Assembly (NCBI GenBank): GCA_963665165.1 | Contig: OY761989.1 | Span: 350,417-414,416 of the forward strand | Length of the DNA stretch: 64,000 nt | Reading direction: 5' to 3' | Source: Arenicellales bacterium | GTDB taxonomy: Bacteria > Pseudomonadota > Gammaproteobacteria > Arenicellales > Poriferihabitantaceae | Shown here: piece after piece, positions 29,385 to 43,074 of the stretch | Layout: the number at the start of each line of letters is the position of its first letter | How positions within the stretch are numbered: position 1 is the stretch's first letter | Made by a program: the position numbers and the translations under genes | The notes under the pieces: generated by a model | Database searches by the model: none | What the model was told of the DNA's origin: nothing | The model's input: only the letters and a program-made list of their open reading frames with translations

Positions 29385-29870
29385 TCACCTCTCCTCGGGC
29401 CGGGTTCTTCGCCTGATCATGACCCCGGCGCCCGCTATTTGTACCATCCCATAACCAGTCACCACCCAGACCGGCTGAAATTCCAGGTGGATCAGCCCGA
29501 AAGCAATTCCACCACCGATTATCACCAGCTTGTACAGCAACCCGGCATAAATCGAACCGAGCGCTGCCCAGCCTGTCTGGCCGGCGCCCGAACCGAAACC
29601 ACGCATTACACTTCTGAAGCTCAGGATGGTACCGGCCATGGCCAGCAACGCCCCGTAAAATGTGCTCCCGAACCCGCCCCGAACCAGGGAAAACAGGGTT
29701 GCATCCTCAAATCCGGCCGTCACTGCCTGCCAGATTGCAACCACAAGCAACAGCAGAACCGTGGCAATACCCTGTAACACCAACACCTGTTTGAGCCCTT
29801 GCCGCAGAGTCTGTGCTTCACCCTTCACCATCGTGCGTTTGCGCGTCAATTCCGCACTGCGCGCTCTCAT
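29385..29870 (-). CDS. atpI: ATP synthase protein I
   Basis: 4-TM protein first in the atp operon; start may be ATG 29831. Confidence 0.7.
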   Translation of the reverse strand: MRARSAELTRKRTMVKGEAQTLRQGLKQVLVLQGIATVLLLLVVAIWQAVTAGFEDATLFSLVRGGFGSTFYGALLAMAGTILSFRSVMRGFGSGAGQTGWAALGSIYAGLLYKLVIIGGGIAFGLIHLEFQPVWVVTGYGMVQIAGAGVMIRRRTRPEER

Positions 29871-36802: not shown

Positions 36803-36967
36803 ATGAGCGAATGCCCTGTATGCGGTGGAGAAATTACCCTGGCGGACGATGTCGTCACGGGTGAATTGCTTGAATGCGGTGATTGCGGGTCGGAGCTCGA
36901 AGTCACCTCGCTGGACCCGGTAGAGCTTGAAGAGGCTCCCGAGGCAGAAGAAGATTGGGGTCAATAA
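36803..36967 (+). CDS. lysW: Amino-group carrier protein LysW (54 aa, absent from the ORF track), C-terminus EDWGQ
   Basis: Hand translation: [54 protein letters not shown]; two CxxC zinc-ribbon motifs, highly acidic, first gene of a lysXYZJ operon. Confidence 0.95.
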
Positions 36968-37803
36968 CCGTCGGCTTTCTGCATTCACTGGTCAGAAGGG
37001 AGGAAAAACTTCTGATCGGGGAATTCAACCAGCGCCGGAATGTCAATCTGGTCCTGATCGATGACCGCCGGCTTTGTTTCGATTTGAAGCATCGCCCCGA
37101 AGTCGACGTGATCGTCGAACGCAGCATCAATCACTCACGGGCGCTTCATGCGCTCAGGCTTTACCAGGGCCTCGGAATCCCCTGCGTAAACAGTTATGAC
37201 GTTTCCCTGACTTGCGGTGACAAGATACTCACTGCGGCGGCATTGCAGGATCACGGCGTTGCGCAGCCGGATTTGAGAATCGCCTTCACGATCGAGTCCG
37301 CTCTCAAAGCCATTGAGGAGCTCGGCTATCCGGTGGTGCTGAAACCCGCCGTCGGCTCCTGGGGCAGGCTGTTGTCCAGGGTAAATGACCGGGACGCCGC
37401 GGAAACCATCCTCGAACACAAGGCTGTTCTCGGCAGCTACCACCATTCCATCTTTTTCATACAAAAATATATCGACAAAAGAGGCCGGGACATTCGCGCG
37501 TTTGTAGTGGGAAACGATTGTATCGCCGCGATTTACCGCAGCTCCACGCACTGGATCACGAATACCGCCCGTGGAGCGACGGCCAGTTGCTGCCCGGTCA
37601 CTCCGGAATTGGGTGAACTCTGCCTGAGCGCCGCGAAAGCGGTCGGTGGCGGCGTATTGGCTATCGACCTGTTCGAATCAACTGACGGCTTTCTGGTCAA
37701 TGAAGTAAACTACACCATGGAATTTCGAAACAGTATCGACACCACAGGTATTCATATTCCGGGCAAGGTGGTGGATCATGTCCTGTCCTGCACAAATGGC
37801 TGA
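36955..37803 (+). CDS. lysX: ATP-grasp LysW ligase (LysX/ArgX, RimK family)
   Basis: [50 protein letters not shown]. Confidence 0.92.
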
Positions 37804-37814
37804 CCCCGAAAACC

Positions 37815-38861
37815 ATGCCGGATAACCCTCCTCCCGTACGGGTTTCGATTGCCGGCGGCAGCGGTTACGCCGGTGGCGAACTGGTCCGGTTATTGCTGGA
37901 TCATCCCGGCGCCAGCCTGCATCAGGTCACTTCGGAGCGGTTTGCGGGAAAGCGGGTGAGCCGGGTTCACCCGAATCTGCGCAAAATAACCACGCTCCCG
38001 TTCTGTTCAATCGCCGACCTTGAACCATGCGATCTGCTGTTCCTGAGTCTGCCCCATGGTCACGCGATGCAAAAACTCGGGCATTTCAAATCCCTGGCGC
38101 CGAAAATAATTGATCTGAGCGGGGATTTCCGGTTACAGGACGCGACGGCATACCGCACCTGGTACGGACGCGACCACTGTTGCCCCGAATATTTAAGCCA
38201 ATTCGTTTATGGCATCCCGGAAATCAACCGGAATGCCATCCGCAACGCTTCACGGGTTACCGGCGCCGGATGCAACGCCACTGCGGCCCTGCTCGGGCTG
38301 CGCCCCGTCTTCAGGCGCGGCCTTGCAACCAGGGCTGTGATCGAGGTCAAGGTGGGTTCCAGCGAGGGAGGTAACCGCATATCCGAAGCCAGTCACCATC
38401 CGGAACGATCCGGCGCCGTGAGGTCGTACAAGCCAACCGGGCACCGCCACATCGCGGAAATACTCCAGGAATTGGGGCCGGGTACGGATATTTCCCTGTC
38501 CGCCACCGCCATTGAAATGGTGCGCGGCATACTGGCTACGTGTCATGTTTTTCTGAAGCAACCGATGACGGAGAAGGAAATATGGAAAATCTACCGGCAG
38601 GAGTATGCAGACGAGCCATTTGTCCGGATCATCAAGGAGGCGACCGGAATTTACCGCTATCCCGAACCCAAATTGTTGAGCGGAACCAACTATTGCGACA
38701 TCGGTTTTGAAATTGACCCGCACAGTAATCGTCTGGTCGTCCTGAGCGCCATAGACAATCTGATGAAAGGCGCGGCGGGCCAGGCCGTCCAGGCATTCAA
38801 TCTGATGTGCGGTTTCCCCGAACGGACAGCGCTGGGATTCACCGGGCTGCATCCGGCCTGA
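37815..38861 (+). CDS. lysY: LysW-gamma-aminoadipyl/glutamyl-phosphate reductase (LysY, ArgC family)
   Basis: GGSGYAGGE, DLSGDFRL, GAGCNATA catalytic Cys, SHHPERSG, DNLMKGAAGQAVQ. Confidence 0.9.
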   Translation: MPDNPPPVRVSIAGGSGYAGGELVRLLLDHPGASLHQVTSERFAGKRVSRVHPNLRKITTLPFCSIADLEPCDLLFLSLPHGHAMQKLGHFKSLAPKIIDLSGDFRLQDATAYRTWYGRDHCCPEYLSQFVYGIPEINRNAIRNASRVTGAGCNATAALLGLRPVFRRGLATRAVIEVKVGSSEGGNRISEASHHPERSGAVRSYKPTGHRHIAEILQELGPGTDISLSATAIEMVRGILATCHVFLKQPMTEKEIWKIYRQEYADEPFVRIIKEATGIYRYPEPKLLSGTNYCDIGFEIDPHSNRLVVLSAIDNLMKGAAGQAVQAFNLMCGFPERTALGFTGLHPA

Positions 38862-38878: not shown

Positions 38879-39532
38879 GTGTGCCGGTTATTACTGTTGG
38901 AGCGCCGGGGCGGGATGGAGCCCGGCCCTCATCTTGACGCTTTCAGGGCGCTTTCGAAAAACAGCCCGGAGTACCAGGGGCATGGCTGGGGATGCGCCTG
39001 GCTGAACCCGGATCGTTCCTGGTCCCTGCACCACAGTATCCAGCCAGTCTGGGAGGATACCCGCTCATTTCCGGAAACCACGTTGTTTCTGGCTCATGCA
39101 AGAAGCGCTTTTCGCAACGAGGGGATTACGGTTCGAAACAACATGCCATTTTGTGACGGCAGTCGGGTCTTCCTGTTCAATGGCGAACTGCGCGGTGTCA
39201 GAATAAAGGCCGAAGGCAGAATTGGCGCCGAAAAGATATTCAACACGCTCAGGAAATTCAACTCGGGCGATATTTCTGAAGCCGTCCGGCGCGGCGTGGA
39301 GGTCATTAACAAACGAACCCGTTATGTCCGGGCGATGAACTTTTTCCTTGCGGATTCCAGGACAGTCCGGATTTACAGCCAGTTTTCCGAAAACCCCGAT
39401 TACTTCCAGTTGCGCGGGACTACCTGCGATGATGTCCGGGTTGTCTGCTCGCAAACCTACGACTCAGGCGGCAGTCACTGGCACAGGATACCCAACAACC
39501 ATTTCTACGCCATCGACCTGGCCCGGGACTGA
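38879..39532 (+). CDS. Class II glutamine amidotransferase-like Ntn hydrolase (EgtC/YafJ-like), 217 aa
   Basis: GGAGG RBS 38867-38871, 7 nt before GTG 38879, giving M-C-R (N-terminal Cys nucleophile); HGWG, LAHARSA, NNMPF, FNGEL. Confidence 0.85.
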   Translation: MCRLLLLERRGGMEPGPHLDAFRALSKNSPEYQGHGWGCAWLNPDRSWSLHHSIQPVWEDTRSFPETTLFLAHARSAFRNEGITVRNNMPFCDGSRVFLFNGELRGVRIKAEGRIGAEKIFNTLRKFNSGDISEAVRRGVEVINKRTRYVRAMNFFLADSRTVRIYSQFSENPDYFQLRGTTCDDVRVVCSQTYDSGGSHWHRIPNNHFYAIDLARD

Positions 39533-40324
39533 ATGATTATCATAAAAATCGGCGGCGGAGAGGCGATCAACCTGCCCGAAATCATCCAGGACCTGGTGGC
39601 GCTCGAACAGCCGTATCTCGTGGTTCACGGCGCGAACGCCTTGCGCGATCATATTGTGGAGAAAATGGGTTTCACCAAAAACATCGTGACTTCCCTCTCC
39701 GGCTATAGCAGTGTTTTTTCCGATGACAATGCCCTTGACGCCATTATGATGGCGTACAGCGGATTGCGAAACAAGCGCATCGTTGAATTATTCCAGCGCC
39801 ATGGCGTCAACGCAGTGGGGCTGACCGGGCTGGATGGGCGGCTTGTGCAGGGAGTTCGCAATAAAGGCATCCGGGTAATGGAAAACGGCAAAAAAATGTT
39901 GAAAAGAGACCGCTCCGGCAAGCCGGAAAGGATCAATACCGGCCTGGTCAACCTGTTGATGGGTGAAGGTTATGTTCCGGTACTGACCATCCCCATCTGC
40001 GACGAAAACGGCTACGCAATCAATTCGGAGAATGACGACGTGGTTGCCCGGTTCCAGGCTGCTCTCGGGGCGGATACGATCATCCAGTTGATCGAGGCTG
40101 CCGGCCTGCTGGAAGACATCGGCAACCCGGACTCACTGATCCGGAAAGTGTGTCGATCGGAACTCGCCACACGCGAACGGATGGCGCAAGGCAGAATGAG
40201 GCGGAAGCTGCATGCCCTGAACCGGATAGCCCGCGCCGGGAATGCCAGAATCATCCTCTGCGATGGGCGAATCGAACAACCGATTACGGCGGCCCTGGCC
40301 GGCGGCGGCACCTGGATCGAGTAA
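39533..40324 (+). CDS. lysZ: LysW-gamma-aminoadipate/glutamate kinase (LysZ, ArgB family)
   Basis: IKIGGG, VVHGAN, GLTGLDG, GRMRRKL basic patch, C-terminal GGGT. Confidence 0.9.
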   Translation: MIIIKIGGGEAINLPEIIQDLVALEQPYLVVHGANALRDHIVEKMGFTKNIVTSLSGYSSVFSDDNALDAIMMAYSGLRNKRIVELFQRHGVNAVGLTGLDGRLVQGVRNKGIRVMENGKKMLKRDRSGKPERINTGLVNLLMGEGYVPVLTIPICDENGYAINSENDDVVARFQAALGADTIIQLIEAAGLLEDIGNPDSLIRKVCRSELATRERMAQGRMRRKLHALNRIARAGNARIILCDGRIEQPITAALAGGGTWIE

Positions 40325-40332
40325 AAACGGCC

Positions 40333-41484
40333 ATGCTGCTCGAACAAAAATACGGTTTTGAGGTCTACCCGAAACGTGAGATAACCCTGGTTCGCGGACA
40401 GGGGGCGCTGGTCTGGGATGACCGGGGCAATTCGTATATCGACTGCGCCGCCGGAATTGGCGTCGCCAGTATCGGTCATGCCAATCCGGTCGTGGCGCGG
40501 GCGCTAAAACGCCAGGCGGACCGGCTGGTTTCGTGTCCGGGCATCTTCTACAACGATATCCGGGGCGAGTGGATGGAGAAACTGGTGTCCATCAGCCCGA
40601 CCGGCCTGAATCGGGTTTTCCTCTGCAATTCCGGTACGGAGGCCGTCGAGGCCGCCTTGAAATTCGCCCGCATCACCACCGGGAAAAACGGCTTCATCAG
40701 CGCCATGCGCGGGTTTCACGGACGAACGATGGGCGCGCTGAGCGCGACCTTCAAGTACCGGGACGAATTTGAGCCGCTGCTTCCCGGCCACCGCTTCGTG
40801 CCCTTCAACAACCTGGAAAAACTGGTCCGGGCGATTGACGATGAGACCGCCGCCATTCTTCTGGAAGTCGTCCAGGGTGACGGCGGCGTTCGACCGGCAG
40901 ACAACCGCTATCTCCAGGCCGTGCGGGAAATTTGCGATACCAGCGGGATCCTGCTGATCATCGACGAGGTGCAGACCGGGTTCGCCCGCACCGGAAAAAT
41001 GTTTGCCTGCGAGCATTCCGGCGTACAGCCGGATATCATGACACTGGCAAAAGCAATCGCCGGCGGATTCCCGATGGGCGCCGTGCTGTGCAATGACCGT
41101 ATCTCTCCGGCGCTGGCGAAACATGGCTCCACTTTTGGCGGCAACCCGCTTGCTTGCGCCGCGGCGCTGGCAACCATCGGGTTTATTGAAGACCAGGCGC
41201 TCCCGGAGCAGGCGCGGCTGAAAGGCCGCCAGTTGGTGGGCCAGCTTGAAACCGGGCCCCTGCCGGGGGTACGGGAAATCCGCAATCTTGGATTGATGGT
41301 GGGAATCGAGCTGAAATCGAAAGCCCGCCCGGTGATCGAAAACCTGTTGAGGAACCGTGTTTTAGCGTTGCCCGCCGGTCCCACCGTAGTCCGCTTGCTG
41401 CCTCCTCTCGTCATAACCGGGGAGCAACTGTCTGAAGTCGCCGACCGCATCCACCAGGCGCTGGCCGAGGCCGCCCGGCGGTAA
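40333..41484 (+). CDS. lysJ: LysW-semialdehyde aminotransferase (LysJ, ArgD class III PLP enzyme)
   Basis: CNSGTEAVEAALK, FHGRTMG, DEVQTG, TLAKAIAGG, HGSTFGGNP; ATG 40333. Confidence 0.9.
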   Translation: MLLEQKYGFEVYPKREITLVRGQGALVWDDRGNSYIDCAAGIGVASIGHANPVVARALKRQADRLVSCPGIFYNDIRGEWMEKLVSISPTGLNRVFLCNSGTEAVEAALKFARITTGKNGFISAMRGFHGRTMGALSATFKYRDEFEPLLPGHRFVPFNNLEKLVRAIDDETAAILLEVVQGDGGVRPADNRYLQAVREICDTSGILLIIDEVQTGFARTGKMFACEHSGVQPDIMTLAKAIAGGFPMGAVLCNDRISPALAKHGSTFGGNPLACAAALATIGFIEDQALPEQARLKGRQLVGQLETGPLPGVREIRNLGLMVGIELKSKARPVIENLLRNRVLALPAGPTVVRLLPPLVITGEQLSEVADRIHQALAEAARR

Positions 41485-41505: not shown

Positions 41506-43074
41506 TCAGGGTTGCTTTTCCCTGAAATCGAATATGTCCACGCGGTCGCCCTTGCGGCCTTCGAAAGTCATGGCTGGAGATTCGCCGATCCGGGATAGAA
41601 TACGCTGGTAATACCCGTCCAGGCCACTCCTGTCGGCGCGGATTGCGATTAGATCCATCCTGTCTTTCAAGGTCTCCGGGTTGGCTATCGCACCGAGATA
41701 ATGCCTGTGGGGCAGAAATACATCCTGCCCCGCGTAATAGTCGAGGATTCGATTGTTGCTGTAGATCCGGAAGCGGTGATAATCGTCGCCGGTTTGTTGC
41801 CTGATCCAGGTTCCGGCTTCCCGCAGATGATGTTTTGAGGTAAACCGGTCCAGCCCTTCCAGGGAATTGATCAACAGCACAAAACCGGTGGCGGCGCAGA
41901 CCGCCTTTGTTTTCCGGCTCATTCTGCCCGCGATTCTGCCCGAACGGCAAAGCGCGGTAACCGCGAACGGAACCAGCAGCATGGTCATCACCGACAAGGT
42001 AAGCGGGTAGCGGTCATTGTACAGGAATCTGAGCGCCGCGAAAGCGGCCAGTATCAGGATGTTGATCACAACGATGATTTTCCAGCACTGCCACGCCTGT
42101 TTGAAACCGGGCGTCTGTCTGTCCAGCCACGGCCGGACAAACATCCCGGCCATCAGGATCAGCACATAACCCAATGTCAGTATTTCAAGAAAATTGAAAA
42201 TCGCTTTCGCAAAAGGCAGCATCACCGCTGCCGGGTAGAGCCCTTTCTCCAGAGCGGACCGCCACATTCCGGGGGCCAGGTTGTCGATATACCCCAGCAA
42301 CTCGGTTTTCGGCGGCAGCCAGATTTTCGGGACCAGTTCCCGGGCGACCGATATCCTGCCGTCATACAGCCAGTACAAAGTGGCATAACCGAGTAACGCC
42401 AGTAAAACCAGCGCGGCGGAGATTGCCAGCTTCCGGGTCAGCCATGCCGGGGTATACCGGCCCGAAACCAGCATCCAGAACAGGATAATGCCGAGGTATA
42501 CCATTCCTTCGATACGAAAAATCGTAGCCAGCAAGCCGGTAAGGAGAAACGCGGCCAGGCCACGGTTGTTCGGGCGCTGCCAGGTTTGCACGAAAAACAC
42601 CATCATCCACAGGAAACAGGCGATATAGGGTATATCGCGCATGATCATGGACTGTATTTCATTCAATCCCGGGTAAAACAGATAGACGAACCCGGCCAGC
42701 CAGACCTGGGTTTTGTCGGCTCCCAGCATTTCGCTGAGTCGGATGAACGCGATTCCACCCACCGCACGCATGGCCGCGCCGAATATCAGTGCTGCATACT
42801 CGGCGGGCAGCGGTGTGATTTTGCTGATGACAGCGAGCATCAGCGGATAAAAAGGCCACTTGTACCAGGCAAGCCCGTCCTGGAAATTACCTTCGGCAAA
42901 TGCGTTTGCCGTCATCACATACCGGACCCCGTCCTCATTGATGACCGGGTCAATGTAATAACTCCACAAGGCGACAAGCAGGGAGCCGGCAACCACGCAC
43001 CCGTAAACCGGAACCCGGCTTCCTGATTCAATCCTGTATCGCAACGGGCAACCGGATTGCAAACGGGCAGCCAT
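41506..43074 (-). CDS. Polytopic membrane protein, GT-C/ArnT-like glycosyltransferase candidate
   Basis: N-terminal TM followed by IN-E-DG..Y loop, WPFYP, IMRD, FRIEG, DRY; many TMs plus a soluble C-terminal domain. Confidence 0.55.
   Translation of the reverse strand: MAARLQSGCPLRYRIESGSRVPVYGCVVAGSLLVALWSYYIDPVINEDGVRYVMTANAFAEGNFQDGLAWYKWPFYPLMLAVISKITPLPAEYAALIFGAAMRAVGGIAFIRLSEMLGADKTQVWLAGFVYLFYPGLNEIQSMIMRDIPYIACFLWMMVFFVQTWQRPNNRGLAAFLLTGLLATIFRIEGMVYLGIILFWMLVSGRYTPAWLTRKLAISAALVLLALLGYATLYWLYDGRISVARELVPKIWLPPKTELLGYIDNLAPGMWRSALEKGLYPAAVMLPFAKAIFNFLEILTLGYVLILMAGMFVRPWLDRQTPGFKQAWQCWKIIVVINILILAAFAALRFLYNDRYPLTLSVMTMLLVPFAVTALCRSGRIAGRMSRKTKAVCAATGFVLLINSLEGLDRFTSKHHLREAGTWIRQQTGDDYHRFRIYSNNRILDYYAGQDVFLPHRHYLGAIANPETLKDRMDLIAIRADRSGLDGYYQRILSRIGESPAMTFEGRKGDRVDIFDFREKQP

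Follow-up and report, generated by a model that had tools for sequence, protein, structure and literature searches.

The closest described relatives of the system considered here are the LysW-dependent amino acid biosynthesis pathways, typified by LysWXZYJK of Thermus thermophilus and also known from Sulfolobus, Thermococcus and, with ArgW as the carrier, the haloarchaea. In these, the C-terminal Glu of the EDWGE tail of LysW serves as the cargo attachment site (PMC10433800, in part), and the final release reaction is assigned to LysK, a metallopeptidase of the M20 family (TIGR01902, NF003367) that uses metal-activated water. A second point of reference is the actinobacterial Pup/Dop/PafA system, where the encoded terminal residue of a small protein tag is Gln or Glu depending on the species, and where a single enzyme, Dop, is responsible both for the deamidation of PupQ and for the isopeptide cleavage that removes Pup from its targets (PMC8599861, in part). 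The third is EgtC, a stand-alone class II amidotransferase-fold enzyme (PDB 4ZFJ/4ZFK/4ZFL; TIGR03442) with an N-terminal Cys, an Arg and an Asn-Gly motif, which removes a gamma-glutamyl residue (PMC9103826, in part). Each of these finds a partial echo in the window, by which we mean the whole 64,000-nucleotide stretch analysed here, where an operon with the gene order lysW-X-Y-Ntn-Z-J and without lysK encodes the following features:

36803 to 36967, forward strand: lysW, a 54-residue Zn-ribbon amino-group carrier with the C-terminus EDWGQ
36962 to 36964, forward strand: the CAA codon of Gln54, in place of the cargo-bearing Glu
36955 to 37803, forward strand: lysX, an ATP-grasp ligase with the GSWGR motif, its probable TTG start lying in the last lysW codons (13-nucleotide overlap)
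37815 to 38861, forward strand: lysY, a reductase of the argC family
38879 to 39532, forward strand: an EgtC-like Ntn Cys hydrolase of the class II glutamine amidotransferase fold (217 residues), a candidate LysK replacement and Gln54 deamidase
39533 to 40324, forward strand: lysZ, [LysW]-aminoadipate kinase (NF010659 above its cut-off)
40321 to 41484, forward strand: lysJ, a class III aminotransferase (top match NF042418, LysJ, below its cut-off; TIGR00707 above its cut-off), with the start set at a GTG overlapping the lysZ stop

The operon shares with its Thermus counterpart the acidic Zn-ribbon carrier with an EDWG tail, a LysX with both GSWGR and the F-I-T-NS specificity signature, and LysZ, LysY and LysJ encoded together. 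It departs from it in three respects: the carrier ends in Gln rather than in the Glu that serves as attachment site (PMC10433800, in part), an Ntn Cys hydrolase encoded between lysY and lysZ is present where LysK is missing, and the genome has no aminoadipate-forming enzymes above cut-off. The identity of the carrier is clear. It has 17 acidic and no basic residues, its Zn-binding Cys4, Cys7, Cys25 and Cys28 are invariant across 41 aligned rows, and it is the single lysW match in the source genome (2.47 Mb, one contig), passing both TIGR01206 (66.8 bits against a cut-off of 53.2) and PF21344 (74.7 against 27) while falling short of the archaeal model NF041070 (67.7 against 75). The encoded terminal residue is Gln: positions 36944 to 36967 read GCA GAA GAA GAT TGG GGT CAA TAA, with a C at 36962.

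The initial annotation had recognized this EDWGQ ending and asked whether the C at 36962 might be a misread G; the ending holds, both in the sequence and in its relatives, and the doubt is dispelled. Contigs from all four public runs carry C with no alternative letter, bearing in mind that the window itself may derive from one or two of these runs and that contigs drop rare variants; one of the four represents a diverged strain whose contig differs at 10 other places and still has C at this position. Together with the occurrence of Gln in relatives, this rules out a sequencing error. Misreading of CAA through a mischarged Glu-tRNA(Gln) is likewise unlikely in the source genome, which encodes a glutaminyl-tRNA synthetase scoring above cut-off. 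We also note that two sponge metagenome runs contain this stretch in diverged form; no RNA run is listed among those that contain it, which has no bearing on its expression.

Among 41 genomes of the order, 20 encode lysW, 15 with a terminal Gln (13 CAA, 2 CAG) and five with Glu; as both CAA and CAG are in use, Gln54 is real and conserved at the protein level. Protein homologues give a comparable picture (39 EDWGQ, 29 EDWGE and three truncated, n = 71), as does a pattern search across 201 genomes of the order, in which 85 matched and a hand count, after exclusion of two matches ending in TGG rather than a stop, left 53 Gln and 30 Glu carriers (n = 83). When 20 of these places were fetched, 19 proved to be carriers, the sole TGG match among them being the non-carrier. 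Two genera of the order contain both Gln and Glu carriers, and Gln persists, encoded by either codon, in different families and phyla where the partner genes are intact. A divergent form occurs in a locus labelled as Patescibacteria (L134:1001-1291), where a carrier lacking the Zn-binding cysteines ends in EDWGQ and heads a lysX-Y-Z-J-Ntn array.

The overlap between lysX and lysW adds a local twist. In 15 loci the lysX frame passes through the TAA stop of lysW, and all 15 have GAT TGG, which furnishes a TTG start inside lysW, and all 15 encode Gln; where the lysW stop is instead a TGA that forms an ATG or GTG, five of eight loci use GAC. Gly53 is encoded by GGT in eight of the 15 overlapping loci, the window included, so that in these a C-to-G reversion to Glu54 would introduce a TGA stop into the reading frame of lysX. 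Gln54 would thus be locked in locally, provided that the TTG start of lysX is real. The overlap can be ruled out as a general cause of Gln, which also occurs where lysX starts separately; it is at most a local lock.

The remainder of the operon is intact, as the initial annotation had noted without mentioning that lysK is absent: lysX, lysY, lysZ and lysJ are open, full-length frames clustered with lysW. LysX, a member of the RimK family (best PDB match 3vpd, E 3e-83), has the residues F183-I193-T204-N259-S260, corresponding to the F-I-T-NS signature of the aminoadipate-specific Thermus LysX (PMC12998189, Table 1), and the same signature is found in all 19 carrier-linked LysX proteins from the window and its relatives, whether the carrier ends in Gln or Glu. 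The best LysK candidate in the source genome reaches only 95.6 bits with TIGR01902 (cut-off 163.1); it is one of four generic M20 peptidases (best 95.6 bits, cut-off 163) that could in principle release the product. De novo synthesis of aminoadipate is also poorly represented in this genome, the best matches for homocitrate synthase (TIGR02146, 273 against 414, with the top matches LeuA- and CimA-like) and homoisocitrate dehydrogenase (TIGR02088, 249 against 410) both lying below cut-off, and lysA and argJ are present above cut-off alongside separate argB-, argC- and argD-like genes. Hence, the operon is not the sole lysine route of its genome, where it stands alongside lysA and the acetylated arginine pathway. 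It is a predicted route that may convert 2-aminoadipate scavenged from outside to lysine. Operons of this type in other phyla include a homocitrate-synthase-like gene or even every gene of the aminoadipate pathway, the latter in locus L088. Two of seven other genomes of the same genus lack the operon. The 522-residue ORF right after lysJ (41506 to 43074, reverse strand) and the 161-residue ORF before atpB (29385 to 29870, reverse strand) have no Pfam or NCBIfam match.

The most distinctive component of the operon is the Ntn hydrolase. Its gene is real, with a GTG start at 38879, a GGAGG 7 nucleotides upstream and a Cys as the second residue. The motifs Cys2, H73-A-R75-S-A and N101-G102 are those of the class II amidotransferases, and Cys2, His73, Arg75, Asn101 and Gly102 occur without exception in the 19 aligned rows. 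The predicted structure (pLDDT 92.7) adopts the Ntn sandwich fold, with EgtC as the top fold match (TM 0.80, E 7e-13, 16% identity). It is nonetheless not an EgtC: it scores 36.4 bits with TIGR03442 against a cut-off of 218.65, and its neighbours are lys rather than egt genes. It further differs from EgtC in that, in an alignment that included the source genome's own GlmS and PurF along with eight EgtC-like proteins, the place of their T/S-D-S/T-E aspartate is taken in the hydrolase by an invariant Gly116 (IGAEK in 68 of 70 sequences, IGAQK in one of 70). We take this Asp in GlmS to bind the free alpha-amino group of glutamine; its loss would be expected if the substrate were the C-terminal Glx of a protein, whose amino group is tied up in a peptide bond. 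The conservation of Arg or Lys at eight positions (at least 90% across 84 rows) is fitting for an enzyme with an acidic partner.

The distribution of this hydrolase is tied to the carrier and not to its last residue. All 20 genomes of the order with lysW (15 Gln, five Glu) have a strong match (E 8e-63 or better), as against none of the 21 relatives without lysW, where four have weak, EgtC-like matches only. LysK, by contrast, does not exceed the TIGR01902 cut-off in any of the 41 relatives, while four of 14 control genomes pass. Among the best 80 of 531 metagenomic loci with the hydrolase, a sample biased to close relatives and containing many short contigs, all 80 adjoin lysX, lysY, lysZ or lysJ and none has lysK; this constant placement in LysW operons also sets the hydrolase apart from EgtC. 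Where lysW is in view in these 80 loci, 28 carriers end in Glu and 18 in Gln (n = 46). Conversely, the 73 real Gln-carrier loci with flanking sequence comprise 47 with LysK, 15 with the Ntn hydrolase, 11 with neither in view and none with both. As the hydrolase tracks the carrier irrespective of the terminal residue, its most plausible role is that of a replacement for LysK, with which it is mutually exclusive in the loci examined and shares the predicted reaction, despite an unrelated fold and a chemistry that would proceed through a Cys thioester. A dedicated maturase that goes only with Gln is ruled out by its presence beside EDWGE carriers (five of 20 relatives; 28 of 46 loci). We consider it highly probable that in the source genome it releases the product; deamidation would then be a side activity that permits Gln. 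Of five checked genomes that combine a Gln carrier with the Ntn hydrolase, all incomplete assemblies, three lack a lysA above cut-off and none has LysK, which suggests that the Gln carrier works.

Within Ntn-type operons the terminal residue changes readily. A quick LysX tree was built from 95 rows of Ntn type, 59 with Gln and 36 with Glu, leaving out LysK-type rows, duplicates and rows shorter than 200 residues; it has 14 state changes, at least five of them forced by strong branches, compared with 29 when the labels are shuffled. A quick tree of 69 hydrolases gives 11 changes, of which at least three are forced. Glu rows are nested in Gln clades and vice versa, with both states found within single genera. 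Column comparison uncovered no compensating residue: no position in the LysX or the Ntn alignment follows Glu or Gln, the largest frequency gaps (0.69 and 0.58, respectively) being confounded by kinship. These patterns suggest that Glu and Gln are close to interchangeable within Ntn-type operons, and we would attribute this to release and deamidation being the same bond chemistry.

Beyond the order, Gln carriers reach into archaea that lack the hydrolase. A scan for EDWGQ followed by a stop, covering nine of 64 parts of the species-genome collection, returned 120 loci, 108 of them carriers, with 84 of these from Nitrososphaeria-like archaea; flanks were available for 80 of the 120 loci, 73 of which are carriers. 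Outside Nitrososphaeria, the 24 Gln carriers divide into 17 of Ntn type, one of LysK type and six without context, so that 17 of the 18 with known context are of Ntn type, a count that overstates the link, as kin are not independent. Of 101 genomes drawn from Nitrososphaeria (the tallies include one unpublished genome, G137), 72 match both a Gln and a Glu carrier, three Gln only, 24 Glu only and two neither, for totals of 75 with Gln and 96 with Glu. The Gln copy usually lies beside a homocitrate-synthase-like gene, lysX and lysK, whereas the Glu copy follows argG; the carrier of the lysine copy ends in Gln in 75 genomes and was seen with Glu in one (G136). Such near fixation looks like selection rather than mere tolerance, and our model leaves it unexplained. 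In several Nitrososphaera loci the argG-linked carrier also ends in Gln. The LysX/ArgX signatures in the Nitrososphaeria loci L057-L136, I-I-M-NT or I-I-T-NV beside the Gln carrier and I-M-I-GL or I-I-V-GA after argG, are absent from the published table (PMC12998189, as far as its accessible part goes). At L118:8009-8491, the lysX beside a second Gln carrier is only 160 residues long and apparently broken or misassembled.

The initial annotation had staked its proposal on a correlation between EDWGQ and the hydrolase gene, and on this count it loses ground: the gene stands beside EDWGE at least as often (28 against 18 loci; five of 20 relatives), and none of the 75 Gln-bearing Nitrososphaeria genomes has a match to the Ntn profile, the four weak matches all falling in Glu-only genomes. 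Nor did a search for a hidden Ntn copy in Gln-bearing Nitrososphaeria find one (none in four genomes in one profile check, none in 75 in another); the weak matches that were inspected either retain the usual Asp motif or are located away from lys operons. Five archaeal genomes that were checked encode only Gln carriers by the PF21344 profile, which detected no hidden Glu carrier in any of the five, four of them fragmented assemblies; these genomes carry several long class II amidotransferases (468-616 residues). Two-carrier genomes extend the pattern. In the Jordarchaeia-type genomes G045, G191 and G205 (L309-L313), a Glu-type and a Gln-type carrier operon occur together, both equipped with a LysK of their own, and a further locus from Thermoproteota also combines Gln with LysK in a two-carrier genome. 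LysK itself is thus a neighbour of Gln carriers in Nitrososphaeria, Jordarchaeia and one other Thermoproteota genome. In contrast, a search of 251 Thermoproteota genomes (150 of 237 matches listed) shows the opposite state in single-carrier systems: among the matches listed, the 98 outside the Nitrososphaeria draw comprise 96 Glu, one spurious and one real Gln, and all 82 single-match genomes outside that draw have Glu. LysK was seen in nine of 12 fetched loci, and the Ntn family has no strong match in the 251 genomes and weak ones in five. Kinship among the genomes inflates these counts too, but it would appear that single-carrier LysK systems keep Glu whereas single-carrier Ntn systems drift freely between Glu and Gln. 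The link between Gln and the hydrolase is a partial one.

LysX activates a carboxylate, and Gln54 must therefore become Glu before the carrier can be used; judged by comparison, the Gln carrier is very likely a pro-form. We infer all the catalytic steps from sequence, gene content, fold and distribution, and propose that LysW is made with Gln54 and that the Ntn hydrolase likely both deamidates it once to Glu54 and releases lysine in place of LysK. Removal of the initiator Met would expose Cys2, which would attack the gamma-amide of LysW-Gln54 with departure of ammonia, and hydrolysis of the resulting Ntn-LysW thioester would yield LysW-Glu54. LysX would then ligate 2-aminoadipate to this residue, LysZ, LysY and LysJ would convert the bound aminoadipate to LysW-gamma-lysine, and the same hydrolase would cleave its amide to regenerate LysW-Glu54, such that Gln would matter only before the first cycle. 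As deamidation and release break the same gamma-amide, a release enzyme acting as one-time primer is the simplest reading, and we favour, with some reserve, the view that the hydrolase primes Gln54 besides its role in release. The earlier suggestion that this enzyme deamidates a Gln54 pro-form is therefore kept in part: the fold, catalytic residues and altered pocket appear suited to a gamma-amide on a protein-bound C-terminal Glx, but the enzyme is not dedicated to Gln and would primarily be a release enzyme. The associated idea of one enzyme for maturation and release would fit well, since lysK is missing. The parallel with Dop is one of predicted function without homology: Dop is a nucleotide-dependent enzyme of the glutamine-synthetase fold and a paralogue of its ligase, whereas the candidate here, an Ntn Cys hydrolase, has no kinship with the ATP-grasp ligase and would act on a carrier whose cargo is a metabolite.

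The Gln-only archaea without the Ntn family imply that a second priming route must exist; in Nitrososphaeria, it would probably be LysK, or else some other factor, that primes the Gln carrier. A route common to the Ntn-type and LysK-type groups, for instance LysX itself, would be more economical, and this counts against our model. LysX might prime Gln54 by an ADP- and phosphate-dependent reversal of ligation, taking the amide to an acyl-phosphate that is then hydrolysed or attacked by aminoadipate in a net transamidation, with the hydrolase confined to release. It is the one component common to the Ntn-type and LysK-type Gln systems, and a single turnover per carrier would suffice. We know of no such activity among ATP-grasp ligases, no LysX column follows Glu or Gln, and Gln is nearly absent from single-carrier LysK-type systems (none of 82 genomes among the matches listed) though all have LysX; we hold this route to be unlikely, even though Dop, with a different ligase fold, uses an active-site phosphate for such a reaction (PMC8599861, in part). 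Somewhat less probable still is that Glu54 arises through some unrelated amidase of the cell or by slow spontaneous deamidation, without either release enzyme taking part. Since the carrier acts catalytically, a small Glu fraction might be enough, and the long class II amidotransferases of the Gln-only archaea offer candidates, but the enrichment of Gln in Ntn-type operons would be left unexplained, and glutaminyl peptides deamidate more than 100-fold slower than asparaginyl ones (PMC11725857, in part).

Two further proposals dispense with deamidation. If the Ntn enzyme were a gamma-glutamyl transferase, a LysW-Gln54 thioester resolved by aminoadipate would load the first cargo without ATP, which is the transamidation from Gln that the initial annotation gave as its alternative; such a reaction should be within the chemical reach of an enzyme of this fold that works through a Cys thioester. 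It would, however, serve the first cycle only, LysX is intact with its full aminoadipate signature, and the hydrolase is identical in kind where the carrier has Glu; we regard it as very unlikely. Alternatively, the membership of LysX in the RimK family and the free alpha-carboxyl of Gln54 raise the prospect of RimK-like loading on that carboxyl. This sits poorly with the alternation of Glu and Gln among close relatives that have the same LysX signature and with the action of the hydrolase's relatives on gamma-glutamyl amides, and we judge it most improbable. The same low standing is given to the view that the Gln carrier is inactive and the operon decaying or dispensable: the conventional lysA and argJ of the source genome and the missing operon in two of seven congeners speak for it, but the above-noted retention of Gln with both codons and intact partner genes across phyla, and the fact that five archaeal genomes, as well as genomes lacking lysA, have no other form of the carrier, speak against it.

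The Gln-ended LysW with this hydrolase is a real and widespread variant of the known lysine pathway, in which, on the preferred reading, the Ntn hydrolase would both prime and release. In the literature covered, which left out supplements whose alignments may show EDWGQ, we found no account of Gln-ended LysW carriers, and none linking LysW to a glutamine amidotransferase in a survey with most subscription papers outside its scope. LysW appears in a published metabolic model for an ammonia-oxidising archaeon, with no word on its terminal residue (PMC6038301, accessible part), and the accessible part of GapMind 2026 mentions neither lysK nor an amidotransferase. The Gln form, present in about three-quarters of the sampled Nitrososphaeria genomes and in many uncultured bacteria, points to an undescribed activation step in core biosynthesis that would extend to the ammonia-oxidising archaea, and the Ntn family would constitute a non-homologous LysK replacement filling an apparent pathway gap. 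More speculatively, and with clear doubts, one might see these carriers as widely Gln-capped pro-carriers that need such activation, a metabolic counterpart of PupQ/Dop arisen more than once: in many bacteria and some archaea by way of the new Ntn hydrolase, and in ammonia-oxidising archaea by way of LysK or another enzyme; in the latter, the near-fixed Gln on the lysine carrier could be a selected gate that separates or times lysine versus arginine synthesis.

The setting of the operon also varies. In relatives it may be interrupted, with about 2 kb between the Ntn gene and lysZ in L029, lysZ about 6 kb off in L039 and lysX about 6 kb from lysW in L300. In the window it lies in the replication-origin neighbourhood (25496 to 51379), between atp-parB-parA-rsmG-pckA and dnaA-dnaN-gyrB.
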